Below are positions 30,583 to 56,550 of a stretch of DNA of 64,000 bases, one piece after another; within the stretch, counting starts at the first letter, position 1, and every line of letters starts with the position of its first letter. The DNA is from Bacteroidales bacterium. Its GTDB lineage: Bacteria; Bacteroidota; Bacteroidia; Bacteroidales; UBA3824. The notes beneath the pieces were generated by a model that did not search any database, was not told where the DNA came from, and saw only the letters and a program-made list of their open reading frames with translations. The position numbers were made by a program, and so were the translations under genes. Location: NCBI GenBank assembly GCA_024401025.1, contig JAKSLV010000003.1, positions 1,897 to 65,896 of the forward strand, given 5' to 3'.

Positions 30583-30692
30583 TTGTTTTTATCGCACTGA
30601 TGACACTGATGACACTGATTTTACACAGATTATTTGATATTATCTAAAAAAAATCTGTGTAATCTGTGATATCTGTGCGAAATAACTAACGT
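30583..30692 (+). repeat. Dispersed palindromic element, copy A (opposite orientation to copies C-F)
   Basis: tcgcactgatgacactgatgacactgattttacacagat...atctgtgtaatctgtgatatctgtgcga. Confidence 0.9.
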
Positions 30693-30694
30693 TC

Positions 30695-30741
30695 TTTTAT
30701 TCCTTTATTCCTTTATTCTTTTATTCTTTCATTCCTTCATT
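30695..30741. repeat. Octamer tandem array TTATTCYT overlapping the nth 3' end
   Basis: ttattcct ttattcct ttattctt ttattctt tcattcct tcatt. Confidence 0.85.
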
Positions 30742-31356
30742 GTAATAGAGGCAGACATCCGAGAGTCCGCACTCATGGCATAGCGGCTTGCGCGCCTTGC
30801 ATGTGTATCTGCCGTGCAGTATCAGCCAGTGATGGGCCCGACCAAGCAATTCCTTGGGGAATCCGGCCTCAAGCTGAGCCTCGGCCTTCAATGGTGTCTT
30901 GGCGTCCTTGGTGAGTCCCAAACGTGCCGAAACCCTGAAAACGTGGGTATCCACCGGCATCACCTCGGCGCCCCACAGCACCGATGCCACCACATTGGCG
31001 GTCTTGGGGCCTACGCCGGGGAGTGTCTGAAGCTGCTCAACAGACTTGGGGACCTCGCCGCCAAAATCGCTTACTATCATACGGGCGGCGTCCAGAATAT
31101 CGCGCGCCTTCGAATTTGGATACGATACCGATTTCACATACGAGAGCACCTCGTCGAAAGTGCTGTCAGCCATGGCCCTGGCATCAGGAAAACGATTGAA
31201 AAGCGCCGGCGTTACCATGTTGATGCGCTTGTCGGTGCACTGGGCCGAAAGCCTTACCGCCACCAGCAGCTGAAACGGGTTGCCGTAGTGGAGCTCGGTT
31301 TTGGCATCAGGCATCAGGGCACTGAAATATTCTACTACACGCTGATAGATATCCAT
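30721..31356 (-). CDS. nth: Endonuclease III
   Basis: LSAQCTD, LPGVGPKTA HhH motif, VDTHV, C-x6-C-x2-C-x5-C Fe-S motif. Confidence 0.96.
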   Translation of the reverse strand: MDIYQRVVEYFSALMPDAKTELHYGNPFQLLVAVRLSAQCTDKRINMVTPALFNRFPDARAMADSTFDEVLSYVKSVSYPNSKARDILDAARMIVSDFGGEVPKSVEQLQTLPGVGPKTANVVASVLWGAEVMPVDTHVFRVSARLGLTKDAKTPLKAEAQLEAGFPKELLGRAHHWLILHGRYTCKARKPLCHECGLSDVCLYYNEGMKE

Positions 31357-31362
31357 GGGGAC

Positions 31363-31414
31363 ATTTTCGATTTTTGATTTTTGATTTTCGATTTTCGATT
31401 CGTAATTCGTAATT
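31363..31414. repeat. Heptamer tandem array ATTTTYG x5 plus ATTCGTA x2
   Basis: Fills the plsC-nth intergenic gap. Confidence 0.9.
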
Positions 31415-32171
31415 ACTTAATCTTCTCTGCCTCTGGCACGATGTCGTCCTCGGAGAGGGCAATCACCTTCTGGCGAACCATCTCGGCGGCCTCCTCGGGT
31501 TTCAGGTTTATGTACTCATCTACGGGAACTGGAGTTCCGTATTTAACCTTTACACGGCATGGATGTATGAAGAAGCCCTTGGGAGCCAGCTCGCTGAGGC
31601 CTGATGTTCCGGTAGGGAGTATCGGCACCTTTACGCTCTGAGCCATCCAGAACGGAATCTTCTTGAACTGCTGGATCTTGCCATCATCGCTGCGGTGTCC
31701 CTCGGGGAATACCAGCAACGACGCGTTCTTGGCCTTCATATTGGCGGCGGCGGTCTCGAATGTGCGGAGCGACGCCTTCATATTCTTGCGGTTGATGGGC
31801 AGTGTGCCGTATTTCTTGATGAAGAATCCGTAGATAGGCCAGCTGAAGTGGCTGTCGGCCTCGATGCCGAATGTGTAGTTGGGCAATACCGAACATATCA
31901 CAGGGATATCCCAGAATGTGATGTGGTTGGGCATTATGATGTACGACTGGTTGAAATCGAAGTTTTCGGGATACTCCACCTCCACCTTCACAAACAGGAG
32001 CTTGAACATGAATTTCAGCATGGACCTAACAGTGGCAAAAACCACCTTGGGTGTAGATACAAAAAGTAGTATAATATTGAAAACCAATATTATGAAAGCC
32101 ATATTGAACATTACGTACCACATATAGAGCGATACGAAGAAAAGTCCGATTTTCTTGAAAAAGTTTATCAT
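31413..32171 (-). CDS. plsC: 1-acyl-sn-glycerol-3-phosphate acyltransferase
   Basis: NHITFWD (HX4D), PINR, FPEGHRS motifs. Confidence 0.88.
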   Translation of the reverse strand: MINFFKKIGLFFVSLYMWYVMFNMAFIILVFNIILLFVSTPKVVFATVRSMLKFMFKLLFVKVEVEYPENFDFNQSYIIMPNHITFWDIPVICSVLPNYTFGIEADSHFSWPIYGFFIKKYGTLPINRKNMKASLRTFETAAANMKAKNASLLVFPEGHRSDDGKIQQFKKIPFWMAQSVKVPILPTGTSGLSELAPKGFFIHPCRVKVKYGTPVPVDEYINLKPEEAAEMVRQKVIALSEDDIVPEAEKIK

Positions 32172-32327
32172 TTGTTTACAAAAAAAGTGTTTTTATAACG
32201 ATTTGCAAATTTACAACTAAAAACTCGTTTTCAGAAAAAAAACTTCAACAAATATATCAGATTTTCATTTTTTAATAGTAACTTTGCTCTTGTATAAGGT
32301 ATCAGACTACACTACAAGAAACTGAAA

Positions 32328-34448
32328 ATGAACAAATTCCGCAATATACTCTCTCAAATGTCGTGGGCATCCACGCTAAGGCTGCTGCTCTATGTAATGG
32401 CCTGCATCATAGTATTGTACTCCATACCCAAGGAGGGAAAATTCAAATACGAGTATCAGAAGGGAAGCCCCTGGAGGCACGACAACCTGATAGCGCCATT
32501 CGATTTTGCCATCTACAAGACCGACGCCGAGATAGAGGCCGAGCGCGAGGCCATCCAAAACGACAAGAGGCTGTATTTCCGCCGCGACGACCACATCATG
32601 TACTCGATGCTGGATGTTTTCGGCAAGGAATTCGACAATCTGGTGAAGAAACACACCGAGAGCGACCTCCCTGCCGACAAAAACAACATCTACATGCGTT
32701 TCCGCTCCACAATATACAACAACATAGAGGAGATATACCGCAACGGAATTGTGGAAAACGAGCTTATAACCGGCACCGCCAACGATACCGACAAGGAAGT
32801 GATGCTATCGGTGCTGGACGAGGACATCACCACGCAAATATCAAGCAGCGAGGTGTTTACGCCCAAGGTGGCATACATCTTCATAAAGAACGACATCCAG
32901 AAGTTTGTAACCAAAAACACCAGCAAGCTTTCCGAGGCCGATTTCAAGAAACTGATGTCGATGGCCGAGGAGCTGGCCCCAAGCCAGTGGATAGCGCCCA
33001 ACCTAATCTACGACAACGAGACCACCGAGAAGGTGCTGAACGGCAATCTGGAATCCATAGCGCCCACCCGCGGATTCATGCAGCACGGACAGTGCATCAT
33101 ACGCCAGGGCGAGGTGGTTACCGACGAGGACTTCCGCATTCTGGAATCCCTGCGCCGCGACTACGAGCAAAACAACACCGCCGGCTACAGCTACATCTTC
33201 CTGGGCCAATCGGTGATATACATAATGCTCTTTGTGCTGATATACCTGTTTTTCAGGACTTTCCGCCGCGAGATTTTCTATCAGACCAAATATTCTGCCC
33301 TGATACTGGTGATGATAACATTCACCATAGCAATGATGAGCATAGTAATAAGGTATCATCTGGTGAACATCTGGCTGCTGCCGTTCCTGCTGCTGGCCAT
33401 CATCATCAAGACTTTCTTCGATACCAGAACGGGCATGTTCCTCCACATCGTTACCTGCGTGGCCGTAAGCTTCCTTACACCCAACTCGTTTGAGTATTTC
33501 GTGATGCAGTTTATCCCCGGATACTTCCTGCTGATGAGCTACGAGAAGCTAAACCGACGCAGCCAGGCGTTCCTAACCTCGATAATATGTTTTGCGCTAT
33601 ACGCCGTAATCTACATAAGTTTCGAGCTTATCTACACCGGCCTGCCCAACGAGGTAAACTACCACAACCTGATACCGCTGGGCCTCAACTGCATAATGCT
33701 GCTGATGGCCTATCCGCTGATATATCTGTTCGAGAAGCTTTTCGGCCTCTTGAGCGATGTTACCCTGCTGGAGCTTGCCGACAGCAACCGCCCTCTGCTG
33801 CGCCGCATGGCCGAGGAGACTCCGGGAACTTTCCAGCACTGCATGCAGGTGGCAAATCTAGCTGAGGCTGCCATTTACAAGATAGGCGGCAACAGTCACC
33901 TTGCACGTACCGGCGCACTCTACCACGATATCGGCAAGCTGGCCGCTCCGATGTATTTTACTGAAAACCAAGTATCAGGAATAAACCCACACGACCAGCT
34001 GGACTACCAGAAATCGGCCGAGATAATAAAGAACCACGTAATAAAAGGCGTGGAGATAGCCAAGGAATACAATCTGCCGATACAGATAATCGACTTCATA
34101 AAAACCCACCACGGCACATCCAAGACGGGATATTTCTACATCATGTACAAGAAAGAGCATCCCGACGAAGACTGCGACGCGCTGTTCACGTATCCCGGCC
34201 CTCGCCCCATCAACAAGGAGATGGCGGTGGTGATGATGGCGGATTCAATAGAGGCCGCATCGCGCAGCCTCAAGAAATACGATACAGAAACCATCTCCAC
34301 CCTGGTGGAAAACATCGTAAACGGCCAGATTAGCAACAAGCAGTTTGATGTCACCAACCTTACTTTCAAGGATATCGACACCGTAAAGGAGCTCTTCAAG
34401 GAAAAGCTCAGAAACATCTACCACGCAAGAATCGAGTATCCGAAATAG
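32328..34448 (+). CDS. 7TM-HD (HDIG) phosphohydrolase, PgpH-like
   Basis: Extracellular domain, 7 TM helices, PGTFQH, YHDIGK, THHGT, MMADSIEAASRS. Confidence 0.9.
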   Translation: MNKFRNILSQMSWASTLRLLLYVMACIIVLYSIPKEGKFKYEYQKGSPWRHDNLIAPFDFAIYKTDAEIEAEREAIQNDKRLYFRRDDHIMYSMLDVFGKEFDNLVKKHTESDLPADKNNIYMRFRSTIYNNIEEIYRNGIVENELITGTANDTDKEVMLSVLDEDITTQISSSEVFTPKVAYIFIKNDIQKFVTKNTSKLSEADFKKLMSMAEELAPSQWIAPNLIYDNETTEKVLNGNLESIAPTRGFMQHGQCIIRQGEVVTDEDFRILESLRRDYEQNNTAGYSYIFLGQSVIYIMLFVLIYLFFRTFRREIFYQTKYSALILVMITFTIAMMSIVIRYHLVNIWLLPFLLLAIIIKTFFDTRTGMFLHIVTCVAVSFLTPNSFEYFVMQFIPGYFLLMSYEKLNRRSQAFLTSIICFALYAVIYISFELIYTGLPNEVNYHNLIPLGLNCIMLLMAYPLIYLFEKLFGLLSDVTLLELADSNRPLLRRMAEETPGTFQHCMQVANLAEAAIYKIGGNSHLARTGALYHDIGKLAAPMYFTENQVSGINPHDQLDYQKSAEIIKNHVIKGVEIAKEYNLPIQIIDFIKTHHGTSKTGYFYIMYKKEHPDEDCDALFTYPGPRPINKEMAVVMMADSIEAASRSLKKYDTETISTLVENIVNGQISNKQFDVTNLTFKDIDTVKELFKEKLRNIYHARIEYPK

Positions 34449-34449
34449 T

Positions 34450-34480
34450 ATCAGTGTCATCTGTGTTATCAGTGTGATAA
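34450..34480 (-). repeat. Dispersed palindromic element, half copy B
   Basis: atcagtgtcatctgtgttatcagtgtgataa matches the right arm of copies C-F. Confidence 0.8.
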
Positions 34481-34496
34481 ATTACATTATTAATAT

Positions 34497-34542
34497 CAAA
34501 AGCCCGTTCCAAAAGCGAAATGCTTCCGGAACGGGCTTTTTT
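34497..34542. terminator. Bidirectional terminator
   Basis: aaaagcccgttcc / ggaacgggctttt. Confidence 0.8.
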
Positions 34543-34562
34543 GTTAGATATGTGAGTTTTTG

Positions 34563-37500
34563 CTATCTCATTGGAGGACGGCCGCCGCCGAATCCACCGC
34601 CTGCTGGACGCTGACCGCCGCCGAAACCGCCGCCATTGCCGCCATTGCCACCGCGTCCGCCGCCGTTGCCGGGTCCGAATTCACCGTTGCCGGGTCCGAA
34701 TCCGCCGTTGTTGTTGTCGGCTGGTGCCTTGTTGCCCTTGTCGCCCTTGTTCTTGGTGAAACGCCATACAAGGTGGAGAAGTGCGTATGAAGGAATCACG
34801 TTGCTGTAGGTTTCGGTGTGTCCCTGAGCATTAACAGTGTAGCGGATGTTGCTGAGGTTGTGGAGAAGGTCGAATGCGTCAAGCATCAGGGTAACCTTGC
34901 CCTTGAAGAGGGTCTTGCTGACACGGGCGTTGAACACAAGCTCGTCGGTGTTCATCTCGGCACCCGACATGCCTCGGCGAGTATACATTGTAAGGTCTGA
35001 TGACAGCTGGAGTCCGCCAGGGAGCTGAAGCTGAAGCGAGCCGCCGTAGTTGACGTTCCAAACGTTCTGAGCATTGAATCCGGCACGCTCCGATTGTGTC
35101 TTGGTGTTGCTTACTGTAGAATTAAGGCCAAACTGGAACACGCCGTTAAGCTTGCAGTCGTAGCGGAGCGAACCCTGAGTGTTGTGGCTGCCCACTACCG
35201 AGCGAACGGGAGCCGATGCAGTGGCCGATGTGCTGGAGAGGTCCACGCTGTTGGTGAAGCCGTAGCTTACATTGGCGTTTACAACGTTGCGCTGGTCCTT
35301 GTCGATAGGAATCGATGTGCCGAGCGATGAGTTGAATTTCCAGTTGCCATCCACATTCTGAGGAGTGCGCACCTTTACGCCGGTGGTGGGATCGTAGATG
35401 TAACCCATTGCCACCTCGTTGTTAGTGGCCTGGAACGATGCCGAAGCGTTTACCTGATACCTGTCGGCAAACTTGTCGCGGTAACGGGCGTTAAGCCTGT
35501 GCGATATTGAGTTCTCCAGGTTAGGATTGCCGTGAGTGATGTTGAGAGGATCGCGGGTATCCACCAGGTCAACGGTCTGGGTAAGGGTTGGCGCATTGAA
35601 ACCGATGTTGTATGAGAGGTTGATCTGCTGACCCTTCTGCCAGTTGTTTCTCATGAAGCTGATGCTTGGCTCTGCGAAAGTGGTGGTGCGGCTAAGAGCT
35701 GTATCCACGCCGCCCTTTCTGTAATCGATGTTCTCGCTCTTGGTTGGCACCGACACGCGCAGGTTGATGTTGGAGAATCCGCCCCTCTCGGCTCTGATTC
35801 TCATAGAATAGCCCAACTCGGGAGTTCCTGTGTTTACAATGTTGTGGGTGTACGAGCTATTGGTGATATCCTCACAGAGAGCCAGTTCCTTCACCGATGG
35901 CAGCATGCCGAGCTCCCTCTCGCCGCTGTTCCATCCTTCCAGAATCTGAAGCATGTAGAGCGATTGGTTGGTCTCGGTGTTGTTGTAGTTGTAGGTATAG
36001 TTGGCTGATACGTTGTGTATCATGTCGTCGTCGAGTGCGTAGTTGATACCGGCTCCCACAGTGGCCTTGTTGGAGTTGGAGAAATTGTCGTTGTAGCGGT
36101 TCTGGTCAAGATCGGGCTGATTGTCGTTTCTATACTCGGTAAGTCTGTGCTCGAAGCTTGGAGTGCTGTTGTCGCTGAAGTCGTAGCTGGCGTTCACGCT
36201 CATCATCAGCCTGTCGTTGTAGAGAGGCGATGCGTTGGCCCTGGTGTTTACTCTGGCAGTCCACTCGTGACCCTCGCCCTCGGCGCGTGTTACGCTTCGG
36301 TTTACGGCATACATTGTAAGGATGTCGCCGGCCACTGGATTCAGGAGGCTGTCGAGCCACTCCTTGCCCCAGCCCTCGCGCATGTCCTTGTCGAGGTTGG
36401 CTGATGCGTTCAGCGAGTTGTTGTCGTAGTGGTGGTAGCTGGCGTTTACGTTAACATCGGCAAACACGTTCTTGAAAGTATTCAGTACAGGCTTTGTGCG
36501 CTGGTTGTAGTTGAATCTGTGCTGAGTCTGCACACGAGTGTCGTAAGAGTTTCGCAGATTGTAGTTTCGTCCAAAGGTGGAGTTTGTGGTCTGCGACATC
36601 TGGTCGAACACCTCCTGAGTGCTGTTGCCCCAAGTGTTGTTGGTGCTCTCGGAATAGGTAACGTTGCCCGATCCGTTGTATCTCATAATGTCGCCCTCCG
36701 AATATCTGTTTCCGGTAACACCCAGCTTGTAGGTCTCCATGAGGCCTGTGCTCTGCTGAAGCGGAGTCCAGCTGCCCTGGTCGCCCGGATCGCGGTAGTC
36801 GTTCAGGTTGTTGATGTTGGCGAATATCGACAGGCGCGATTTGTCGGAGAATCTGGAAGCGAAGAGACGGGCCAGATACTTGTCGGCCTCAAATTCCTCC
36901 ACATCATACATCGATGCTCCAAGACCGCCCTCCAGGTTGAAGATCCAGCCCTTGGAATACTCGCGCTTCATCTTCACGTTCATTACGGTCTCTTTCTCCA
37001 CCTGGTCCTCAAGCGGAGTGCCCACATACTCGCGAGGAGTCTGCTCGTGCACGCCGATGTTCTTAATCATATATGCAGGCAGGTTCTCCAGGAAGAGTTC
37101 CTTGTCCTGATCCAGGAGCTCGCGGCCGTTAAGCTGAAGCTCGCTCACCTTCTTTCCGTTCACGTAGATCTCGCCGCCGTCCTTAAGCTCCACGCCCGGA
37201 AGCTTCTTTATCAGCGCATCGAGCATCGATCCCTCGGCCATCTGGAAAGCCGTGGCGTCGTATACCAGGGTATCGCCGTTGGTGTAGAATTTCAATCGGG
37301 TGGCTGTTACGGTAACCTCGTCGAGCTGAACCTCGTCGAGCTTGGTCTCCCTCTGCATGTAGATGATGTCGAGATTCTTGAACTTCTCGTTCTTGTGGAA
37401 TCTCTCAAGGTTGAAAGGCACATACTTAACCTTGAACTCAGGAGCCCAGATGCGTATCTGATACTCGCCCACCTGGGTAACGGTAAACGTGAAGCTGCTG

Positions 37501-37724
37501 CTTCGGCGGTTTCCCCAGCCCCAGATGCGTACGTCGGCCGTATCCACACAGCGTCCGTCCTTTATGATTTCCACTATCATGGTGTCAAGGCATTTCTGCG
37601 ATAGAAAATCCTTCACCTCCGCGCTCACCTGCAGTTTCTGCTGCGAGGCGGTCTCATCGTTTTGGGCCAATGCCGATACTGCAAAACAGCATATCAGCAA
37701 AACCATCGACAATAACTTTTTCAT
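34563..37724 (-). CDS. Outer-membrane beta-barrel protein (TonB-dependent receptor-like) with Gly-rich tail
   Basis: Signal peptide; LDEVTVTA, GDTLVYDA, KKLPGVE plug region; GNPNL; last strand YALLHLVWRF then GGFG-rich tail. Confidence 0.85.
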   Translation of the reverse strand: MKKLLSMVLLICCFAVSALAQNDETASQQKLQVSAEVKDFLSQKCLDTMIVEIIKDGRCVDTADVRIWGWGNRRSSSFTFTVTQVGEYQIRIWAPEFKVKYVPFNLERFHKNEKFKNLDIIYMQRETKLDEVQLDEVTVTATRLKFYTNGDTLVYDATAFQMAEGSMLDALIKKLPGVELKDGGEIYVNGKKVSELQLNGRELLDQDKELFLENLPAYMIKNIGVHEQTPREYVGTPLEDQVEKETVMNVKMKREYSKGWIFNLEGGLGASMYDVEEFEADKYLARLFASRFSDKSRLSIFANINNLNDYRDPGDQGSWTPLQQSTGLMETYKLGVTGNRYSEGDIMRYNGSGNVTYSESTNNTWGNSTQEVFDQMSQTTNSTFGRNYNLRNSYDTRVQTQHRFNYNQRTKPVLNTFKNVFADVNVNASYHHYDNNSLNASANLDKDMREGWGKEWLDSLLNPVAGDILTMYAVNRSVTRAEGEGHEWTARVNTRANASPLYNDRLMMSVNASYDFSDNSTPSFEHRLTEYRNDNQPDLDQNRYNDNFSNSNKATVGAGINYALDDDMIHNVSANYTYNYNNTETNQSLYMLQILEGWNSGERELGMLPSVKELALCEDITNSSYTHNIVNTGTPELGYSMRIRAERGGFSNINLRVSVPTKSENIDYRKGGVDTALSRTTTFAEPSISFMRNNWQKGQQINLSYNIGFNAPTLTQTVDLVDTRDPLNITHGNPNLENSISHRLNARYRDKFADRYQVNASASFQATNNEVAMGYIYDPTTGVKVRTPQNVDGNWKFNSSLGTSIPIDKDQRNVVNANVSYGFTNSVDLSSTSATASAPVRSVVGSHNTQGSLRYDCKLNGVFQFGLNSTVSNTKTQSERAGFNAQNVWNVNYGGSLQLQLPGGLQLSSDLTMYTRRGMSGAEMNTDELVFNARVSKTLFKGKVTLMLDAFDLLHNLSNIRYTVNAQGHTETYSNVIPSYALLHLVWRFTKNKGDKGNKAPADNNNGGFGPGNGEFGPGNGGGRGGNGGNGGGFGGGQRPAGGGFGGGRPPMR

Positions 37725-37769
37725 AACTTTTTTTTGATGATTGTATTTTCTTGTTTGACGATATTAATC

Positions 37770-37910
37770 TAACTAAAGATTCGACGAATTGGAAAGTTCC
37801 GCACAGATATCACAGATTTCTTTGGATAATATCACGTAATAATAATCTGTGAAAAATCAGTGTCATCTGTGTCATCAGTGCGATAAAAACAATTCGTCGA
37901 ACTTACGTTA
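37770..37910 (-). repeat. Dispersed palindromic element, copy C (most complete, with terminal inverted repeats); MITE/REP-like
   Basis: taactaaagattcgacgaattg ... caattcgtcgaacttacgtta around cacagat/atctgtg 9-mer arms. Confidence 0.9.
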
Positions 37911-37987
37911 CATTACGATTGACTAGCAAAAGCAGGCAGAGTTTAATACAGGCGCAAAATTATTTTGGAAACAGCAGCCTCAGGCCG

Positions 37988-38027
37988 AAAAGAAAAAAAG
38001 GCACAGATACTTTAAATACCTGTGCCT
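37988..38027 (-). terminator. Terminator after pyrI
   Basis: aggcacagata / tacctgtgcct stem, T-tract on minus strand. Confidence 0.75.
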
Positions 38028-38062
38028 CAATGTATTTATTTATGTATTTCCTGATGCTTGCA

Positions 38063-38521
38063 TTACAGGAGCGTAAAGTGCTCGCTGTCGGTAATCTTGC
38101 CGCAATAATGACACCTCAGCGATACCGAATCGTCCTTTACAACCTCGAACTTGGTCTGCATGGGCTCCGAGTTGGTGATGCACTTGGGGTTGATGCACTT
38201 GCAGAGGCCCACCACCGAATCGGGCAGCTGCACGGGTTTCTTGTCGATAACCTCGTAGTTGCGGATGATGTTGAGGTTTGCCGTGGGAGCGATTAGCGCA
38301 ATCTTGTTGATCTCGCTGTCGGCAAAAAACTTGTCGGCCACCTTTATGATGGCTTTCTTGCCCATCGACTTTGATTCCAGGTTTCCGCCAAATGTAACCT
38401 GGTTTGGCATGTGCTCGAAATCCAGGATCTTTATCACCTTGAAGAGGTCCTTGGCAGGTATATGGTCGATAACGGTGCCGTCCTTTATGGCACTTACTAT
38501 AAGTTCCTTCTTGTTGCTCAT
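38063..38521 (-). CDS. pyrI: Aspartate carbamoyltransferase regulatory subunit
   Basis: AIKDGTVIDHI, CINPKCIT, CHYC zinc motifs. Confidence 0.97.
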   Translation of the reverse strand: MSNKKELIVSAIKDGTVIDHIPAKDLFKVIKILDFEHMPNQVTFGGNLESKSMGKKAIIKVADKFFADSEINKIALIAPTANLNIIRNYEVIDKKPVQLPDSVVGLCKCINPKCITNSEPMQTKFEVVKDDSVSLRCHYCGKITDSEHFTLL

Positions 38522-38566
38522 AATAACTAAATTTGTGTGAAACTATAAAAACACAATGTCCTGATG

Positions 38567-39478
38567 CTACTTCTTTAGGCCCAGCACGTATGATATCACA
38601 GCCTGACGGGCGTACACGCCGTTCATGGCCTGCTCGAAATAGTATGCGTGAGGATTGGAATCCACATCCTGGCTAATCTCGTTGATGCGTGGCAACGGGT
38701 GCAGAATCTTCATCGAAGGCTTTGCGTTGGCCAGCATCGAGTTCTTGAGAACATAGAAATCCTTTGTTTTCTCGTACTCCACCTGGTCGGTGAATCTCTC
38801 CTTCTGCACGCGTGTCATGTAGATAACGTCGGCCTCAGGGATAAGGTCGGCAAACTGCTCATGCTCGTAATACTTTACGCCCTTGCTGTCGAGATACTGC
38901 TTGTACTCGTTTGGCATGCGGAGCTTCTGATGCGACACGAAATGGAAAACGGGGTTGAAAGGCGCCATGGCCTGCACCAGCGAGTGCACTGTGCGTCCAT
39001 ACTTTAGGTCGCCCACCATGAAGATGTTTATATTATCCAGCCTGCCCTGAGTCTTCTTTATAGAGTACATATCGAGGAGGGTTTGTGTGGGGTGCTGATG
39101 CGCGCCATCGCCGGCATTCACCACGGGCACAGTGGCCACCTCGCTGGCGTAGCGGCTGCTTCCCTCCAATGGGTGGCGCATCACTATAAGGTCGCAGTAG
39201 TTGGATACAATCCTTATTGTGTCCTTAAGGGTCTCGCCCTTGGAAACGCTGGAGATATTTGGATCGGAGAATCCGATAACGCGGCCTCCCATGCGGTTGA
39301 CGGCGCTCTCGAAACTGAGACGGGTGCGGGTGCTGGGCTCAAAAAACAGAGTAGACACCACCTTGCCATCCAGGAGATGAGGCTCGGGCTTTTTCTCGAA
39401 ATCTGCCGCAATCTCCAATACTCTAAGTATCTCGTCGGTAGAGAAGTCGGTTATAGATATCAGACTATTATTTTCCAT
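38567..39478 (-). CDS. pyrB: Aspartate carbamoyltransferase catalytic subunit
   Basis: [26 protein letters not shown]; start taken at MENNS. Confidence 0.97.
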
Positions 39479-39643
39479 ACTATTTACAATTTGTATTAGT
39501 TGATAATTTCTGAAATGCAAATATAGAAAACTTCCATGAAAAAAAAGCCGGCAAAAAGAAAATTTTTGCTACAAAAAAAATATGACAGATTGCAAAAAAA
39601 TATATATCTTTGCAATTCGAAACACCGAATCAATTAGTACACA

Positions 39644-40300: not shown

Positions 40301-40321
40301 AACCACCAAAGCCAACCAACA

Positions 40322-46255: not shown

Positions 46256-46256
46256 A

Positions 46257-46913: not shown

Positions 46914-46928
46914 ATTGTAATGTGTTTT

Positions 46929-47966: not shown

Positions 47967-47996
47967 GGTTTGGGGAAATATGTATTTGTATAAAAT

Positions 47997-48084: not shown

Positions 48085-48110
48085 AAAAATGCCTTGTATT
48101 CTGTAAGAAT

Positions 48111-49103: not shown

Positions 49104-49106
49104 ATC

Positions 49107-49952
49107 TTAGAACAGTCTTTTACGGTTATACTTAGATGGGAAAATAAGCTTATCCAGATACTTGAGAAGGATGTCCTGGAGGATACCGATTACGATAACG
49201 AGGATAAGCAGGGCGTACACCTCAGGCATCTTGCTCATACGGGTCATCGTCTGTATCAGGGCTCCGATGCCGCTAACGGCGCCGTCCTTGTAGAGCATCT
49301 CCACAATTACGATGTAGCTCCAGCTGATACCTGTAAGGGTGATGATCTCCTGCGAGATGTTTCTGGTGACGTATGGGAAATACACGTAGCGGAACTTCTG
49401 CCACTGAGTGGCGCCCAGGGTCTGGATGGTCTGGAGATATACGAAATCCTTGTCGTTGGTGGGGTTCTGAAGGTCGTTGACCTTGTTGGCCACGGCTGGC
49501 AGAATGTATATCAGCAGCGAGAATGTGAGGAAAGATGTCTTCATGCCGAAAGTAAGGCCGAAAATGGCGATGAATATACCCGACATAGCAGGTATAGGCA
49601 GATAACGGATGGAGTTGATGTACTTTCCAATAATCATGTTGTTGATGGGGTACAGCGAGATAAAGAATCCGAAAGGAAGCGATATCAGGATGGCCCAGAA
49701 GTATGCCAGGAGGTTCAGCTTTATTGAATACCAGGCATTTGGCAAAGCGTCGTACTCAGAGAAGAGGCTTCCGTAGCTGGTGATAACGGCCAGCGGCGAT
49801 GGAAGTATCTTGTCTGGAATAAGACCCAGCGAGCATACAAGCTGCCATAATGCCAGTATCAGGAAAATTCCTGATACTGTTATTATGGAGGAAGTGCTCT
49901 TGCTGAGGTTTGGCTGTCCGCCAATCTTGAACAGTTCTTTTACAGCACTCAT
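49107..49952 (-). CDS. ABC transporter permease (NitT/TauT-like)
   Basis: LPSPLAV, RYLPIPA, TLGATQWQKFRYVYFP loop, WSYIVIVE. Confidence 0.9.
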   Translation of the reverse strand: MSAVKELFKIGGQPNLSKSTSSIITVSGIFLILALWQLVCSLGLIPDKILPSPLAVITSYGSLFSEYDALPNAWYSIKLNLLAYFWAILISLPFGFFISLYPINNMIIGKYINSIRYLPIPAMSGIFIAIFGLTFGMKTSFLTFSLLIYILPAVANKVNDLQNPTNDKDFVYLQTIQTLGATQWQKFRYVYFPYVTRNISQEIITLTGISWSYIVIVEMLYKDGAVSGIGALIQTMTRMSKMPEVYALLILVIVIGILQDILLKYLDKLIFPSKYNRKRLF

Positions 49953-49976
49953 GGTAATAGTATTATAATAAAGTGA

Positions 49977-51530
49977 TTAATCAGCCAAAAGCTGGAAATC
50001 GGTTCTGCGGTACTGAGCGTCGCTGCCAGACGATCCGGCTGCGATGGCCTTCTTGCTGCCGTTGCCCACTACCACGAATCTGTTAGGATCGAAACCGTAC
50101 TCCTTTACGAGGTAGTTCTTGATGGAGAGGGCTCTGCGGTAAGAGAGGTCTTGATTTAGCTGAGCGCTTCCGGTGTTGTCGGTGTTACCCTCGATACGGA
50201 TTCTGGCGCCCGAGAACTCCTTGGCTATGCCCACAAACTCGCGGTCGATGAGGGCCTTGGCGTTGCCGTCGAGAGCGTCGCTGTTGATGGCGTACTCTAC
50301 AGAAACCGACTTTGTGGAAATCTGTTTCATCTCCTGAGACTTCTCGGCAGTAACCTCCACAAACTCCTGAACCTTCTCGGCATCCTGATTACCCTTCACC
50401 TGAGAAGGATTGTCGTAGAGAGCCTCGATGATGGAAGCGTCGTGAACCTTGCGCCAAGCCATAGGGCTCTTGCAGAGCTTAAGGTTCTCGTATGTGCGGG
50501 CCATCTTGTTGTAGAGCTCGTCGCCCTTGATGCCCTGATAGTTGCTGTTGAGACCGAAGAAGTTGGCCTCGTCGCCCAAGGTACAGTAGTAGATATTGTG
50601 GCTGCCGTCGATGGCAAACTGCTCCTCTACGGCGTATGCCTTAGCGAAAGCCTTGGCGGCCTGCTTTACGGCGGCCTCGTCGGTGTTCATCTTGCTGTTG
50701 GCATACAGGAGTGCAGAGATAAGCTTGGTGGCCTTCTCGCGGTTGGCCTCTATCCAAGAGCTCTTTGCTATAAGACCGTCACAGATGATGTTGCTGGCCT
50801 GCTTGGTGCTTACGAGCACCTTGCTGCCGGGCATTGTGGCCACGATGTCCTGATCGTCGGGAGAGAAAACCACAGCGGCGTCGCACTGTCCTGCCTTGAA
50901 TACTGATGCTGCGTCAAGACCCGACTGCACAATCTTGAGGTTTACCTTGTCGCTCATCACTTTGGATGTGGTGTTCACCTCCGAGAAGTCCATATTGTTG
51001 GTTTCCAGAGTGTTCAGGAGCAGAGTCTGAGAGGCTGTACCCTCGCTGCAAGCCACCACCTTGCCTTTGAGATCGGCCACGGTGTTCACGTGCTTGTTTA
51101 CCACAATGGCGTCGGCGCCACGGCTCCAGTTGCTGATGTTCACAAACTTGGCATCAGCCATATCAGAGCCCTCGCCCATCTCCACAGGGAAAGCGTCGGC
51201 TGTACAATATATCATGTCGATATCGCCATTCTTGAAAGCAGAACGTCCGGCTGGGAAGTCGTCCTGAACCACGATCTTAAGCTTCAGACCATACTCATTA
51301 TATATGATACAGTTCTCGTTGGGGTCCACTCCGTTGTTGAGATACATGAATGGAAGGAATCCAGCGTATGTGTTGGTACCAATGGTGATTGTGTTCTTGT
51401 CGGAAGAACCGAAAGAAACAGAAGATGAGCCGCCATCAGTGCCCTTGCCTGCCAGCGACAGACCGCCTACTATGGCTCCCACGCCGACCACCACGCCGGC
51501 GTATTTAACCCAAGGTTTTACTTTTGCCAT
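49977..51530 (-). CDS. ABC substrate-binding protein fused to C-terminal OmpA-like peptidoglycan-binding domain
   Basis: N-terminal hydrophobic anchor; WSRGADAIV, DLKGKVVA SBP motifs; IRIEGNTDNTGS...LSYRRA...RRTDF OmpA_C. Confidence 0.88.
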   Translation of the reverse strand: MAKVKPWVKYAGVVVGVGAIVGGLSLAGKGTDGGSSSVSFGSSDKNTITIGTNTYAGFLPFMYLNNGVDPNENCIIYNEYGLKLKIVVQDDFPAGRSAFKNGDIDMIYCTADAFPVEMGEGSDMADAKFVNISNWSRGADAIVVNKHVNTVADLKGKVVACSEGTASQTLLLNTLETNNMDFSEVNTTSKVMSDKVNLKIVQSGLDAASVFKAGQCDAAVVFSPDDQDIVATMPGSKVLVSTKQASNIICDGLIAKSSWIEANREKATKLISALLYANSKMNTDEAAVKQAAKAFAKAYAVEEQFAIDGSHNIYYCTLGDEANFFGLNSNYQGIKGDELYNKMARTYENLKLCKSPMAWRKVHDASIIEALYDNPSQVKGNQDAEKVQEFVEVTAEKSQEMKQISTKSVSVEYAINSDALDGNAKALIDREFVGIAKEFSGARIRIEGNTDNTGSAQLNQDLSYRRALSIKNYLVKEYGFDPNRFVVVGNGSKKAIAAGSSGSDAQYRRTDFQLLAD

Positions 51531-51568
51531 TTTATTATCGGTTATTAAGTTGTAGTTTTATATTATGA

Positions 51569-52705
51569 TTACTTCTCGGCATCCTGTACGCCCTTCACCT
51601 TAGAGGCGTCCTTGCTGAGAGATTCGATTATCGAAGCGTCCATCACCTTGCTCCATGGCTGTGGAGCCTTGCAGAGCTTGAGGCCCTCGTACTGAGAGGC
51701 CATCTTGTTGTAGAGCTCGTCGCCCTTCATGCCCTGGAATGCAGGATTAAGGCCAAAGAAGTTTACCTCGTCGCCCAAGGTGCAGTAATAGATGTTGTGG
51801 CTGCCGTCGATGGCGAAGTCGGCATCGGTGCCATAGCATTTTGCGAAAACATCAGCGGCCTGCTTTACTGCGGCCTCATCAGTGTTCATCTTGTAGTTGG
51901 CAAAGAGGAGTGCTGATATCAGCTTCTCAACCTTTGATCGGTTGGCGTTTATCCAAGAGCCCTTGGCAATGAGACCATCGCAGATGATGTTGCTGAACTC
52001 CTTGGTGGAAGCAAGGACCTTGGTGTTCTCAACAGACGAAACGATGTCCTGATCGTCGGGAGAGAAAACCACAGCGGCGTCGCACTGTCCGGCCTTGAAA
52101 ATCTGTGCGGCATCCAATGCTGACGATACCACCTTAAGGTTCACCATGTCGGGCTTTACGTCTGCCGACGAATTTACCTGAGAATACTTGATTCCGTTCT
52201 GCTCCAAAACGGTGAGGAGCAGAGTGTTGCTGGCTGTGCCCTCGCTGCATGCCACCACAGCGCCCAGAAGGTTGCTCACAGTCTCGATGTTGGTGGTGGA
52301 AACTATGGCGTCGGCACCGCGGCTCCAGTTGCTGATGTTCACGAACTTGGCATCAGCCATATCAGAGCCCTCGCTCATCTCGATAGGGAAAGCGTCGGCG
52401 GTGCAGTAAATCATGTCGATATCGCCATTCTTGAAGGCGGCGCGTCCGGCGGCAAAATCGTCCTGGATCACCACTTTAAGCTTGATGCCGTATTCCTTGT
52501 AGAGGATGCAGTCCTCGGTTGGGTCAACGCCGTTATTGAGATACATATAAGGCAAAAAGCCTGCGTAAGTATTTGTACCTACGGTAATTACATTATCGCT
52601 GGCAGCATTGCCGCCCTGCTGCGATCCTGTACAGCTCATGGTAAGGAGCGATGCGGCTATCATGGCCGAACCGGCTGCCTTGCCCAACATATTAAGTTTC
52701 AACAT
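51569..52705 (-). CDS. ABC substrate-binding lipoprotein (paralog of the SBP domain downstream)
   Basis: Lipobox TMSC; near-identical segments to 49977..51530; ends at QDAEK. Confidence 0.85.
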   Translation of the reverse strand: MLKLNMLGKAAGSAMIAASLLTMSCTGSQQGGNAASDNVITVGTNTYAGFLPYMYLNNGVDPTEDCILYKEYGIKLKVVIQDDFAAGRAAFKNGDIDMIYCTADAFPIEMSEGSDMADAKFVNISNWSRGADAIVSTTNIETVSNLLGAVVACSEGTASNTLLLTVLEQNGIKYSQVNSSADVKPDMVNLKVVSSALDAAQIFKAGQCDAAVVFSPDDQDIVSSVENTKVLASTKEFSNIICDGLIAKGSWINANRSKVEKLISALLFANYKMNTDEAAVKQAADVFAKCYGTDADFAIDGSHNIYYCTLGDEVNFFGLNPAFQGMKGDELYNKMASQYEGLKLCKAPQPWSKVMDASIIESLSKDASKVKGVQDAEK

Positions 52706-52736
52706 TATATAAGTTATATTTTTTGATGATTGGTTT

Positions 52737-53741
52737 TTAGAAATAGTTGCGGCTGCTGTTCTGGAGTTTCTCAGCTGCCTTGTTGAGCGAAGCGTTCAGC
52801 TGGCTTACGCTCTTGTCTTCCAGAGCCTTTGGACCATCCTGCGACGAAGAAGAGAAAATTCCGTCGATACCGTTCTCGCGGTACTTCTGGAGGAATTCCT
52901 CAGCCTTGATGCTGTTGACGGCGTTGTCGAGGGCAATCTGATCGATGATGCCGCCGGTCTCGTCGATGATGAGCGACATCTCGCCGAGTTTCTGGCTGAT
53001 ATCGTTGTCCATGAAGTCCATAGCCATTGTAAAGCTGTCGAGCTCGTCGGGATTGTCGGAGAGCAGACCCTGAATGCTAGAGAAAGCCTTGTGCTGAGCC
53101 TTGATAGACTCAAACTCCTCCTTGCGTGCCTTTACGGCGTCCTCGGTGTCCTCCACCTTAAGCTCGGCTGCCTTCTTTAGCTCGGTGAGAATCATCATCC
53201 AAGCCTTGCTGTCCTCAAGACGCTTGCTGGAATTCTCGATGGCGGTCTTCAGGCGCACAATCTTGTTGTTGCAAACCTGAGCCTCCTGCATGCGGTTGCT
53301 CTTCTGGAGGAGGTCCAGCTTGCGGAGATTCTCGTCCATCTCGGCGCGCTTCAGCTGCAAACGCTTCTCGTTCTGCATGTTGAGACCCTTTACATCGCCA
53401 AGAAGCTTGCTGATTTTCTGGATCTTGCCCTTCATTTCCTTCACCTTGCCTTCCACGATGGCAATGGGATCTATCTCCACCACCAAACCTGTAAGCTTGC
53501 GCATAATAAGGAAATATACATTGCTGCAAAGGTTACGGAATTTCTTGTTGGTGATAAGGAAACCAATGAGAGCCAATACTCCGCAGAGCGCGGCCAAAGT
53601 GATGGTCTTCTGTGTAAGACTTATAAGGAAGTCGATGTTCTTGAAAATCAAGAAACCGCCGCCTACTATCAAACCTGCCAAAACTACCTTGGCGAGGGTT
53701 CCGCCTGGACGCTGCCAGGGTGATACGGGTTTATTTTCCAT
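52737..53741 (-). CDS. Membrane-anchored coiled-coil protein, PspA/IM30-like
   Basis: Two N-terminal TM helices, then IDPIAIVEGKVKEM and about 200 aa of heptad-rich helix. Confidence 0.55.
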   Translation of the reverse strand: MENKPVSPWQRPGGTLAKVVLAGLIVGGGFLIFKNIDFLISLTQKTITLAALCGVLALIGFLITNKKFRNLCSNVYFLIMRKLTGLVVEIDPIAIVEGKVKEMKGKIQKISKLLGDVKGLNMQNEKRLQLKRAEMDENLRKLDLLQKSNRMQEAQVCNNKIVRLKTAIENSSKRLEDSKAWMMILTELKKAAELKVEDTEDAVKARKEEFESIKAQHKAFSSIQGLLSDNPDELDSFTMAMDFMDNDISQKLGEMSLIIDETGGIIDQIALDNAVNSIKAEEFLQKYRENGIDGIFSSSSQDGPKALEDKSVSQLNASLNKAAEKLQNSSRNYF

Positions 53742-53754
53742 ATTATATGAAAGT

Positions 53755-54453
53755 TTAGTTGATTGCGTTGTCTATCTTCACCATATCGGCCTTTAGCGCG
53801 CCGATAAGTGCGTTAATTGTAACATCAAAATCGAGTTTCTTGGTGTTGAGCTCGGCTCTCTTCTGAGCCACCTCGGCCTGAAGCTCCTTGATCTCGTCCT
53901 GCACCTGAACCATCTGGGCCTGAAGCTCCTCTATGCGCTTAAACTTCTGCTCTATCAGCTCGGTAGGAGCTGTAATCTCCTCCTCTATACGCTGTCCAAG
54001 CTGCTGAAGCGCGCTTGTGCGCTCGCCCTCCATCTTCTCCACATACTGCTGAAGGCTGTTGAGCACGATTGCCTTCGAGAATGTGGGGTTGCCGGCCTGA
54101 ATGCTGAAGAATGCCGATACAATTCTCTGGTTCTCGTCAGGAATATTCTTGCGGAAATTCTCGTTGTCGATGATGCTCTTAAGCTCCAGATAATCAGGAC
54201 CTGGCAGATTAAAGTCCCTGAGCGCGGCCTCGAAAGTCCTCAGCAGATCGGGGTTGATTTTTCCCTCGCCGCTTGGCTGACTCATATCCACTGTGGGCAT
54301 GCCAATCTCCTGAGTGCCGGGCGCATTGTATTGCTGCGCGGGTGCATCCTGAGGCGCTGCCTGCTGTTGCTGTTGAGCCGCCTGCTGGGCAGCCTTGATA
54401 TCTTCCTCGTCTTCCTCTATGAAAGCGCTCTTGATTTTATCGAATAATCCCAT
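53755..54453 (-). CDS. Hypothetical coiled-coil protein, first gene of the operon
   Basis: Amphipathic MGLFDKIKSAF start, Q/A-rich linker, NLPGPDYLE segment, C-terminal coiled coil. Confidence 0.7.
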   Translation of the reverse strand: MGLFDKIKSAFIEEDEEDIKAAQQAAQQQQQAAPQDAPAQQYNAPGTQEIGMPTVDMSQPSGEGKINPDLLRTFEAALRDFNLPGPDYLELKSIIDNENFRKNIPDENQRIVSAFFSIQAGNPTFSKAIVLNSLQQYVEKMEGERTSALQQLGQRIEEEITAPTELIEQKFKRIEELQAQMVQVQDEIKELQAEVAQKRAELNTKKLDFDVTINALIGALKADMVKIDNAIN

Positions 54454-54491
54454 ATTATTTATAGAAATTAAGTTTCACGTATATCCAATTA

Positions 54492-54620
54492 AAGTTTCGC
54501 ACAGATACCACAGATATCACAGATTTTTTATAGATAATATCATGCAAAATAATAATAATCTATGAAAAATCAGTGTATCAGTGTCATCAGTGTGATAATA
54601 AACAATCCGCCGAACTTACG
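54492..54620 (-). repeat. Dispersed palindromic element, copy D
   Basis: aagtttcgcacagataccacagatatcacagat...atcagtgtcatcagtgtgata...gaacttacg. Confidence 0.9.
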
Positions 54621-54749
54621 ACGAATTAATCAAAATACAAAGTAAACAAAAAAAATTGAAAACAAGAAAGATTTTGCATAAATTTTTGCACGAAAATTTT
54701 TGTTGCCTGATGCTGCCTTGATACACAAAGAAAACAAATTACCGTCATC

Positions 54750-54862
54750 AAGTTTCCGCACAGATTTTATTTATATAATATCACGTAAAAAAATAATAAT
54801 CTGTGAAAAATCAGTGTCATCTGTGTAATCAGTGCGAAAAAAAAATCATAAAACTTACGTTA
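54750..54862 (-). repeat. Dispersed palindromic element, copy E
   Basis: aagtttccgcacagat...atcacgtaaaaaaataataatctgtgaaaaatcagtgtcatctgtgtaatcagtgcg...aacttacgtta. Confidence 0.9.
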
Positions 54863-54995
54863 ATTCATATACTTCCTGATACTTACGCAAAATTTGCTAA
54901 AATTCTGCAAAAAGATTTATGGATTTTTGCGGACATACCGCTCTTATGGGCGTAATCAGTACTAATATCAACTTTATTTTATTAGAATTATCTGT

Positions 54996-55033
54996 GCCCC
55001 TCCGATTTCAGTAGCCTGGAGGGGCTTTTTTTT
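54996..55033 (+). terminator. Hairpin with T-tract on the plus strand
   Basis: gcccctcc / ggaggggc followed by T8. Confidence 0.65.
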
Positions 55034-55043
55034 GCCAGTAAGA

Positions 55044-56390
55044 TTAGTTGAATCCCTTGTAGACTTTTTGTCCAAGGCCAATGTATCCGGTAATCGAAAT
55101 ATTCACCACATTTTTGGGAGATTCCAGTGCGTGAGAATATCCGTAATGCTTGTATCCCACGCTCATACCTACATATCTGAACCTGCCATACAGACCCACG
55201 CACGGCACATGCAGATTCTCCGACACCGGCTTCAGGTCCATGGCCCCGTCGTACTTTCCCGACATCATGGCAAACTCGTAGGCAAGCAACGCGCCCCAGT
55301 CGGGCATCATCTTGTGGGTGAACGATATGCGTTTCTCGAGATCGAAATGCAGCATCCGGCGCTTTTCCCTGAGCTGATAATAGAGATTTTTGGAATCCTG
55401 AACCAGCGCCGGCTTGTATCCCGGCCTCAGCGACGCGCCAAAGTGGAGCGACATATTGCTGCGCTGCTCGTGAACGCCCACATCGAAGCCAAGGCGGAAC
55501 TCGTGTTTGCAGAATTCCTGAAAGGCCGAAATGGACAAATACCTTATCATCAGCAAGGAGGCGCAGCGTCCGCCCATGGAGGCAATCTTTCTGGCTGACA
55601 AGCCGTTGCTGTTGAAAACCGCCATATCTCGTGGAAGACGCTTGTCGATGCCGGGCTCGTTGACGTCCACTCCCCAGTTCTTGAGGTCTTCCGCCATCCT
55701 CCAATCGGCATATATGGCGGCAAAGTGCATCGGATAGCCCTTGTGGATGTCGCAATTGGCGTTGCGAAGCATATCGGCAGCATCAGACGCACCAAACTCT
55801 GCCGCCACCGAGAAGGCTGTGCGTCCCCCGGCCATGAGGTCAACATCAGCACCGTTGGATATCAGGAGGTTGATCATGGCGGTATCGTTGTTGGCGGCGG
55901 CCTGCTGAAGCGCGGTAACACTGCCACAGTACACGATGTTGGGATCGGCGCCGTGGAACAGCAGCACGTCGGCACACTCCACCAGGCCGCATTTGGCGGC
56001 GTGGAACAGCGCGGTGTATCCGGCGGAATCCAGCAGATCCACCTTGGTGCGCTCATATTGCAGCATCAGGTCCACGGTCTGGGGATGGCCGGTAAGCACT
56101 GCCGCATGCAGCGCCGGTGGCTCGTAGTCGTAGAGGGGCAGCCAGTTGGGGTTTGCGCCATTCTCCATCAGGATTTTCACGATATTGTCGTAGCCCTTGT
56201 CGGCGGCATACATCAAAGGGGTGTAGCCGTTGTCGTCGAAGGCGTCCACATCCTCATGGCGGTTTATTAAGTGGGCCACGTTATCGTAATCGCCCATCAT
56301 AGAAAAGAAATGGAGATTGTTGGTCTGGGCCGCGGCATCCATCGCGCAAAGCCCGCATGCAAGGGCGATAATGGCAAAAATCCTTCTCAT
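55044..56390 (-). CDS. Secreted ankyrin-repeat protein with predicted C-terminal beta-barrel
   Basis: Signal peptide; GYTPLMYAA, GYTALFHAA, TALQQAA repeats; C-terminal amphipathic beta strands. Confidence 0.8.
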   Translation of the reverse strand: MRRIFAIIALACGLCAMDAAAQTNNLHFFSMMGDYDNVAHLINRHEDVDAFDDNGYTPLMYAADKGYDNIVKILMENGANPNWLPLYDYEPPALHAAVLTGHPQTVDLMLQYERTKVDLLDSAGYTALFHAAKCGLVECADVLLFHGADPNIVYCGSVTALQQAAANNDTAMINLLISNGADVDLMAGGRTAFSVAAEFGASDAADMLRNANCDIHKGYPMHFAAIYADWRMAEDLKNWGVDVNEPGIDKRLPRDMAVFNSNGLSARKIASMGGRCASLLMIRYLSISAFQEFCKHEFRLGFDVGVHEQRSNMSLHFGASLRPGYKPALVQDSKNLYYQLREKRRMLHFDLEKRISFTHKMMPDWGALLAYEFAMMSGKYDGAMDLKPVSENLHVPCVGLYGRFRYVGMSVGYKHYGYSHALESPKNVVNISITGYIGLGQKVYKGFN

Positions 56391-56418
56391 GATAAAATTA
56401 CATATATTTTATAATTTA

Positions 56419-56550
56419 AAGTTTAGCACAGATATCACAGACAACACAGATTGTTTTAGATAATATCACGTAAAAAAAACAATAATCTGTGAAAAATCAG
56501 TGTAATCTGTGTCATCAGTGCGATAAAAATAATTCGTAGAACTTACGTTA
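56419..56550 (-). repeat. Dispersed palindromic element, copy F
   Basis: aagtttagcacagatatcacagacaacacagat...atcagtgtaatctgtgtcatcagtgcgata...aattcgtagaacttacgtta. Confidence 0.9.

Follow-up and report, generated by a model that had tools for sequence, protein, structure and literature searches.

MITEs (miniature inverted-repeat transposable elements) with ends of the IS982 type are known in the Bacteroidales. In Porphyromonas gingivalis, the parent insertion sequence (IS) ISPg3 and its MITEs, MITE239 and MITE700, have ends reading ACGT(G/C)AGTTCGA (PMC4596501, Table 2), with terminal repeats that start ACGTGAGTTCGA / ACGTCAGTTCGA. Members of the IS982 family are about 1 kb long and have 5'-AC ends; IS1187 of Bacteroides fragilis measures 1,028 bp (~1.03 kb), carries one DDE transposase open reading frame (ORF) and inverted repeats of about 21 bp, and makes a 7-bp direct repeat, and the review that covers this family does not use the word MITE (PMC7335449). 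MITECca01 of Cardinium, a Bacteroidota MITE of about 240 bp with IS982-family inverted repeats, is an internal deletion of its parent, ISCca4, intact copies of which are believed to maintain it (PMC9769881). Here we describe a family of palindromic repeats in a 64,000-nucleotide stretch of a Bacteroidales draft genome (positions 1897-65896 of contig C147, hereafter the window), in which the same ends enclose a hairpin made of tandem 9-bp words. Like MITE239 and MITE700, these copies are small, intergenic and without a transposase; the interiors of those two elements are not reported as palindromes of 9-bp words, and here the interior also exists without the ends (PMC4596501). In contrast to MITECca01, the interior is unrelated to the IS, and unlike IS1187 the window holds non-autonomous derivatives only.

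Two other bacterial systems resemble the inner part of the element. The P. gingivalis MITE BrickBuilt contains short tandem repeats in an internal array, their number differing from copy to copy, and many of its copies have lost one or both terminal inverted repeats (TIRs), as in the present family; its repeats are 23-nt direct repeats within IS5-type ends, whereas here 9-bp words form two inverted arrays that fold back on each other (PMC4596501). Hairpin-forming doublets of repetitive extragenic palindromes (REPs), known as REPINs, are intergenic repeats of about 70 to 110 bp that number in the tens per genome; their associated enzyme, the REP-associated tyrosine transposase (RAYT), is encoded by one gene that the repeats flank (PMC3116915, PMC3337134). 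REPINs consist of two short palindromes, whereas the arms here are tandem words. The RAYT is a Y1 transposase, whereas the gene linked to the present kind of arm encodes a GxxExxY protein of the PD-(D/E)XK fold, by association only and with this partner missing from the clade studied here.

To define the family, we searched the source genome (G000; a draft of 2.84 Mb in 223 contigs, 75% complete) with nhmmer, using a profile built from the window copies called C to F below (E ≤ 0.01). The 113 matches, which fall on both strands because the element is palindromic, merged into 68 loci of 33 to 163 bp. The family is non-coding and multi-copy, and nearly all copies are intergenic, with 3 of the 68 loci inside an ORF according to rough ORF calls (2,305 ORFs covering 91% of the genome), which also served for the polarity counts below. 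Placed in register, the 68 copies have an inner hairpin with the layout (T)CG-(CACAGATNN)x2-3, an A/T-rich loop and (NNATCWGTG)x3-4-CG(A). In the long forms the loop carries TAGATAATATCACGTAA, and fuller copies have the outer ends TAACGTGAGTTCGACGAATT ... AATTCGTCGAACTCACGTTA; the profile runs from a left arm of up to three units through a core and a right arm of 1 + 3 units to a tail. The core, GATAATATCACG, is present with up to 2 mismatches in 19 of the 68 loci. At least one outer end (scored per locus at up to 5 mismatches) occurs at 29 loci and none at 39, 34 of which also lack the core. The flanks of 30 short forms have only (T)CG/CG(A) in common. The element has two layers, an inner palindrome of words and outer IS-type ends.

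Drosophila foldback (FB) transposons have long inverted arms with variable numbers of short tandem repeats and a loop that is small or lacking and sometimes carries cargo. Their likeness to the present hairpins is architectural only; FB elements are eukaryotic and much larger, and no homology is implied.

The sequence-only reading had listed five near-full copies and one half copy in the window, and all six lie at the positions given for them. The two-unit motif ATCWGTGNNATCWGTG (up to 1 mismatch) occurs 18 times in the window, where 0.12 occurrences are expected, and none of 100 shuffles reached 18. The copies and their terminal repeats are as follows.

30583..30700, minus strand: copy A, a long-form hairpin with both IS982-type ends decayed or truncated
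34450..34480, plus strand: copy B, a half copy consisting of the right arm alone (ATCAGTGtcATCTGTGttATCAGTG), beginning 2 bp past a stop codon
37770..37912, plus strand: copy C, a long form in which IS982-type ends enclose 2 left units, the core and 4 right units
37780..37790, plus strand: left terminal repeat of copy C, TTCGACGAATT, truncated and without the outer ACGTGAG
37891..37910, plus strand: right terminal repeat of copy C, AATTCGTCGAACTTACGTTA, with 1 mismatch to the IS982-type TIR (C147:39787)
54483..54622, plus strand: copy D, a long form whose right end (CCGAACTTACGACG) is degenerate
54748..54862, plus strand: copy E, a long form with one left unit, its right end being AACTTACGTTA at 54852-54862
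56412..56553, plus strand: copy F, a long form whose left end is a TIR-like remnant only
56531..56550, plus strand: right terminal repeat of copy F, AATTCGTAGAACTTACGTTA, with 2 mismatches to the IS982-type TIR (C147:58427)

Other details of that reading were borne out as well: TTCGACGAATT faces AATTCGTCGAACTTACGTTA as the inverted repeats of copy C, copies C, E and F all finish in AACTTACGTTA, and the arms vary from 1 to 3 units on the left and 3 to 4 on the right, differing among arms and copies. The flanking genes also agree with those it had named (CDP-alcohol phosphatidyltransferase, an outer membrane protein beta-barrel, PyrI, ankyrin and CN-hydrolase). Copy A was assigned to the minus strand by its nhmmer scores (86.5 bits, against 31.1 bits on the plus strand).

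The outer ends are those of an IS982-family IS. A complete IS in the same genus (L038 1253-2293; 1,041 bp, with the TIR TAACGTGAGTTCGACGAA) contains an ORF of 301 aa with an NF033520 score of 263 bits (cut-off 130) and a match to the Pfam domain DDE_Tnp_1_3 at 2.7e-69. With its protein as the query, 472 relatives were found in genome contigs (records of Prevotella, Bacteroides, Alloprevotella, Hoylesella and others), and in 73 of the best 80 of these 472 related loci, to which our IS end statistics refer, both TIRs lie 1,029 to 1,055 bp apart, a length comparable to that of IS1187. Taking the IS as AC...GT, a perfect direct repeat of 6 to 9 bp flanks 40 of the 67 full copies with readable flanks; 39 of these 40 repeats read TA-N(2-5)-TA, and 24 further copies share a trivial TA only. 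The 6-7-bp TA..TA duplications of this IS can be likened to the 7-bp direct repeats of IS1187 by description, not by sequence (PMC7335449). An earlier delimitation of the IS as TAACG..CGTTA with a 3-bp target duplication was replaced by these AC..GT ends. A reading of the ends (..TAAC..GTTA..) as integron attC sites was dropped, as the same ends occur on an IS with a DDE transposase; IntI was not searched for.

In G000 the outer TIR occurs 57 times at up to 4 mismatches, compared with 2 occurrences of a reversed control, and among five genomes tested it is found in the same four that carry the hairpin: G000 and three relatives, G011, G002 and G006, which together form a four-species clade. The TIRs also bracket unrelated interiors, namely a palindromic family of about 200 bp and minis of 96 and 43 bp, and several lie at contig ends. 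Five contig ends of G000 hold IS ends, either a left TIR followed by N-terminal codons or C-terminal codons followed by a right TIR. At contig ends of G000 and G006 a promoter-like stretch and the ORF start (MITEGKITEFFCI...) come after the left TIR, and the ORF end precedes the right TIR; in G002 a frameshifted C-terminal transposase remnant adjoins a TIR. A hairpin copy with two TIRs (G000:C180:5445-5598) is flanked by a TAAATA duplication, and in the same genome a duplication of the family type also flanks 3 of 8 further small pairs of TIRs. The left TIRs of the window copies are truncated or decayed, so their own target duplications are unreadable.

Because the terminal repeats are IS982-family TIRs, the long copies are MITEs of a known kind, similar to MITE239 and MITE700 of P. 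gingivalis. The sequence-only reading had called the mobiliser unknown; that question is now answered in part, as the outer TIRs of about 20 bp equal the ends of IS982-family ISs. It had also specified that a match to the ends of a catalogued IS family would remove the novelty, and for the outer layer that novelty is gone. The outer layer is one more MITE of an ordinary kind, and it explains contig breaks and intergenic differences here; the inner layer is the interesting part.

Several other structures with these ends were seen. A second MITE family of about 165 to 265 bp has IS982-type ends and a palindromic interior rich in aaattacc/ataaatta words (G000:C200:5603-5787, C217:7514-7709, C187:6568-6732 and C154:21931-22195); arms of CAAAAATT words similar to this interior bracket a GxxExxY gene in G011:C74 (L311). 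In G011, truncated left-end modules of the IS, consisting of a TIR and a promoter-like stretch of about 75 bp (L017 5560-5760, L018 200-300), directly abut the 3' ends of unrelated ORFs rather than a transposase.

The hairpin family is confined to few genomes of the genus. A three-unit pattern occurs 55 times in G000, 35 in G006, 27 in G011 and 18 in G002; in G019 it matches twice, in a different context, it is absent from the remaining 20 genomes of the genus and from 16 further genera, and controls gave 0. Within the clade, copies differ in presence. Copy C is absent from the orthologous site in G011:C10, G002:C255 and G006:C358, and copy F from that in G011:C12, G006:C22 and G002:C40; the G011 counterpart of the interval with copies D and E contains no 9-mer arrays, and a TIR-bearing mini-copy at C124:7284 is absent in G002. 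Copy A, by comparison, is also found in G011 at the orthologous position (C25:59562-59675), where the core is complete, with both TIRs decayed in both genomes. The G011 alignment near copy B stops at window position 34447. The TIR-less copy G000:C217:4584-4676 is present in G011 and absent from G006, with flanks 97-98% identical, and the DNA that G006 lacks begins and ends at the base of the hairpin with no trace of a TIR; at this site G002 has a different hairpin, made of GCAGAT words. With empty sites in relatives for copies C and F and for the short C217 copy, the proposal of a non-autonomous, MITE/REP-like mobile family is supported.

At other short-form loci, the G011 counterpart of C213:1364 retains the last unit only, together with other inserted repeats, and that of C213:1738 has a TAAGAG-word palindrome instead; C213:17612, C172:15364, C218:6429 and C124:5142 lie within unbroken BLAST blocks with G011 or G002 and were read as shared. 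The lineage-specific window copies C to F are all of the TIR-bearing type, and most of the TIR-less short hairpins examined, which are few, appear older and common to the nearest relative.

Beyond this clade, at least 121 stretches of metagenome contigs match CGCACAGATNNCACAGATNNCACAGAT exactly, and 80 loci with an arm (196,392 b) were examined. Their arms, usually with the base GTCG...CGAC, flank many unrelated interiors, and an IS982 TIR is present at 2 of the 80 loci. A Pfam scan of the largest ORF (at least 150 aa each) of 43 single-arm loci found no transposase; the matches were to host genes and one more PDDEXK_3 gene. Across the order, the three-unit pattern occurs in 14 of 401 genomes and 13 of 236 genera. 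One genome of another family, G042, has about ten 75-bp hairpins without TIRs between the genes of a polysaccharide-synthesis cluster, where some of them are in tandem with an 86-bp period. With 39 of the 68 loci in G000 TIR-less, the empty site at C217 and the 2 of 80 metagenome loci, the inner hairpin exists independently of IS982 ends. The G042 locus (L312; G042:C2:21000-39000), where a CACAGAT hairpin occupies nearly every intergenic gap of the cluster, also holds two AAA_14/DUF4143 ATPase genes and one AbiEii-like gene.

Outside the clade, the arms are associated with GxxExxY (PDDEXK_3) nuclease genes. Such a gene lies 3 to 306 bp from an arm at 13 of the 80 metagenome loci, compared with 0 of 80 IS982 loci used as a control (157,236 b). 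The background in the order, 95 PF13366 matches in 61 genomes of about 214.5 Mb (summed sizes), predicts about 0.09 per 196 kb. At one locus (L202), two arms 476 bp apart enclose the GxxExxY gene, and in G042 (L312 13352-13980) three tandem hairpins end at the start of one. Inverted-repeat seeds of at least 11 bp are present on both sides of all 9 GxxExxY genes examined in the genus (a tenth locus, L309, was left out, its gene touching the contig start); these arms use other words, among them TAAGAG, CAAAAATT, CACGGAG and ACACGGA.

The arm-linked protein belongs to a large family without assigned function (PF13366 at 1.8e-41, TIGR04256 at 1.2e-42) and keeps D...ExK and the GxxExxY motif. Its AlphaFold model has a predicted local distance difference test score (pLDDT) of 95.7. 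No relative was found in the PDB by sequence, and a Foldseek comparison of the model with PDB structures yielded nothing at E ≤ 0.001; the nearest folds, all weak, were Cas4 SSO0001 (1.5e-3), lambda exonuclease, AddAB and Hjc. The model supports a nuclease fold and is silent on the substrate. We found no paper linking the GxxExxY/PF13366/PDDEXK_3 family to repeats.

We consider it likely that the family is composite, two-layered mobile DNA in which a foldback hairpin of the GxxExxY-associated class sits within IS982-family ends. The inner layer, tandem 9-bp words (CACAGATNN) facing NNATCWGTG above a (T)CG...CG(A) base, would be one member of a widespread group of "tandem-word palindromes" that elsewhere enclose or abut a small GxxExxY gene. 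The GxxExxY protein, a minimal RecB/Cas4-like enzyme, would be the best candidate for maintaining or spreading these palindromes, as the RAYT does for REPINs, and the hairpin layer here may be a gene-less derivative of such a GxxExxY-linked element. The long form would have arisen once a hairpin had become enclosed by IS982 ends, giving a MITE of 110 to 160 bp with the TIRs, about 20 bp long, of an IS1187/ISPg3-like IS. An IS982 DDE transposase would then move the long forms in trans, into A/T-rich TA-N(2-5)-TA sites, duplicating 6 to 7 bp; the newest copies were probably moved by an IS982-family jumping gene. A bolder version is tentative, and we lean somewhat against it: that these elements form an undescribed selfish class in which a cognate GxxExxY protein (120 aa) recognises and propagates the word arms, as a PD-(D/E)XK counterpart of REPIN-RAYT, with the nuclease lost in this clade and the hairpin hitch-hiking in IS982 ends. 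If true, one selfish element parasitises another's transposase. If the nuclease drives the palindromes, the GxxExxY family would gain a function and bacterial repeat biology a new class of enzyme. The nesting is a natural setting in which to ask whether repeats can exchange one mobilising enzyme for another.

Several observations weigh against this composite reading. On the nuclease side, the link is one of association only, some of the 13 metagenome loci look like duplicates (L194/L218, L219/L235), and the metagenome loci are not assigned to taxa. In the four carrier genomes, none of the GxxExxY genes found has CACAGAT arms: G000, G002 and G006 have no GxxExxY match at E ≤ 1e-20, the sole GxxExxY gene of G000 (C170:8678-9010) shows 33% identity and has other flanks, and the two genes of G011 have TAAGAG and CAAAAATT arms. 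The closest homologue in the genus of the arm-linked GxxExxY protein is 48% identical, and presence of the gene is not correlated with hairpins. On the transposase side, G000, G011 and G006 gave 0 NF033520 matches, no intact IS982 copy is assembled in them (at 75% completeness for G000), and the carriers show only IS982 ends and one remnant. A MITE backbone free of the hairpin was not found in G000 or the collected loci, where 4 matches at up to 2 mismatches were unrelated. The window copies, with their left TIRs truncated or decayed, may no longer be mobilisable. Finally, the greater age of the short forms is judged from 8 loci, most of them by unbroken BLAST blocks and not base by base.

The sequence-only reading had held that every copy lies in the same direction relative to a gene ending just upstream, and had proposed orientation-specific insertion. 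The element is asymmetric, which gives it a definable orientation. Across the genome, 21 copies point the same way as flanking genes that are themselves co-directional, 19 point the opposite way, 10 lie between convergent and 6 between divergent genes; the split of 21 to 19 (binomial p = 0.88) refutes a fixed orientation and lends no support to orientation-specific insertion, and it is also nonsignificant when restricted to confidently oriented copies. In the window, copies C to F share one orientation, opposite to their minus-strand neighbours, and copies A and B lie between convergent genes and are therefore uninformative on polarity. The family is one without fixed polarity.

The simplest alternative has a single layer, with all copies having begun as IS982-type MITEs and the TIR-less short hairpins being old copies whose ends have decayed. 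Copy A, common to G000 and G011, has indeed lost most of both TIRs with its units intact, and at least one TIR is kept at 29 of the 68 loci. We nevertheless judge this improbable: the empty site of the C217 copy in G006 is bounded by the hairpin base with no trace of a TIR, the flanks of 30 short forms share (T)CG/CG(A) only, an IS982 TIR accompanies just 2 of the 80 metagenome arm loci, and the pattern extends to 13 of 236 genera of the order and to the TIR-less 75-bp hairpins of G042. The hairpins might instead function as RNA, ending or stabilising the upstream mRNA like a terminator or being cut by RNase III, so that function preserves the repeats. They are stable (z of -3 to -12; -38 to -51 kcal/mol and z of -6 to -12 for short forms), nearly all are intergenic, and those of G042 lie between genes of one cluster in the manner of intercistronic REPs. 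The structured RNA that had been offered as one possibility gained no support, with 0 Rfam matches at the gathering score on both strands of the 64-kb window and no pairing covariation: in 25 copies with 3+3 outer units, 94 of 175 cells at variable positions were complementary, compared with 103.2 ± 4.0 after shuffling of the partners. Nearly every left arm reads CACAGAT, whereas the right arms use both ATCAGTG and ATCTGTG, so that A.A mismatches are systematic; the two orientations occur equally often, ordinary terminator-like hairpins (a stem plus a T-run) already adjoin copies A and B, and copies come and go among close relatives. There is no sign of a conserved structured RNA, and this explanation seems unlikely to us.

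Tolerance of the central W without a compensating change in the other arm would suit arrays of binding sites for a host regulator or nucleoid protein recognising ATCWGTG, the palindromy reflecting dimeric or cooperative binding, and many copies lie 7 to 54 bp upstream of start codons. With a 9-bp spacing, however, neighbouring sites would face different sides of the helix, no candidate for the binding protein emerged, and the varying presence of copies next to housekeeping genes such as pyrBI in closely related genomes speaks against a conserved regulon; such binding, which is also compatible with the mobile-element reading, is very unlikely to be the explanation. Spread as a REP/REPIN family by a RAYT, that is, a Y1 transposase of the IS200/IS605 type, is suggested by the REPIN-like size of the hairpins and by the numbers of Y1_Tnp genes (3 in G000, 6 in G011, 6 in G002 and 5 in G006, versus 0 to 3 in the other 21 genomes of the genus). 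Yet each of the three Y1 genes of G000 has GC-rich palindromes of its own at its sides and not 9-mers, no Y1 gene of G011, G002 or G006 shares a contig with a 9-mer array among the arrays listed, and tandem words differ from short palindromic REPs. We rejected the RAYT as mobiliser, the Y1 genes carrying other flanking palindromes, and regard this last explanation as extremely improbable.

Copies lie 23 to 54 bp upstream of several start codons and may alter the expression of neighbouring genes. The loops of these hairpins seem to be hot spots for insertion: at G000:C39:4328-4741 about 280 bp, including repeats of CTCTTA/TAAGAG words, is inserted in the loop of one 9-mer hairpin, and the G011 counterpart of C213:1364 is a second case, into which one of the Y1-flanking repeat types is also inserted. 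The Y1 (RAYT-like) genes of G000, each with palindromes on both sides, are at C40:2577-2915, C162:19242-19586 and C180:25640-25987. Short forms are often bordered by arrays of TTTTTGAT/TTTTCGAT 7-8-mers, or by their complement on the other side (G000:C217:4540-4583, C172:15330-15363, C124:5100-5141, C40:4490-4529 and C39:4386-4420); G006 has such an array without the hairpin, so the array may be a preferred target (TTTCGA). The GxxExxY gene on C170 lies between two direct repeats of about 75 bp, some 700 bp apart (G000:C170:8512-9290), each containing a small palindrome (aaacttcgaaacaaagtttcga), a type of flank unlike the 9-mer arms.

Identity to G011 is about 90% throughout, and that to G002 and G006 is about 80% around part of the window (29500-39500) and 93-98% on C217, C174, C218 and C124; this unevenness could reflect recombination between lineages or a mixed bin. 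Beside copy A, a run of 9-10-bp direct repeats (ttcctttat/ttcttttat variants) at 30696-30748 overlaps the start of the minus-strand ORF 30721-31356, the 3' end of an endonuclease III-like gene, and its G011 counterpart has fewer such repeats.

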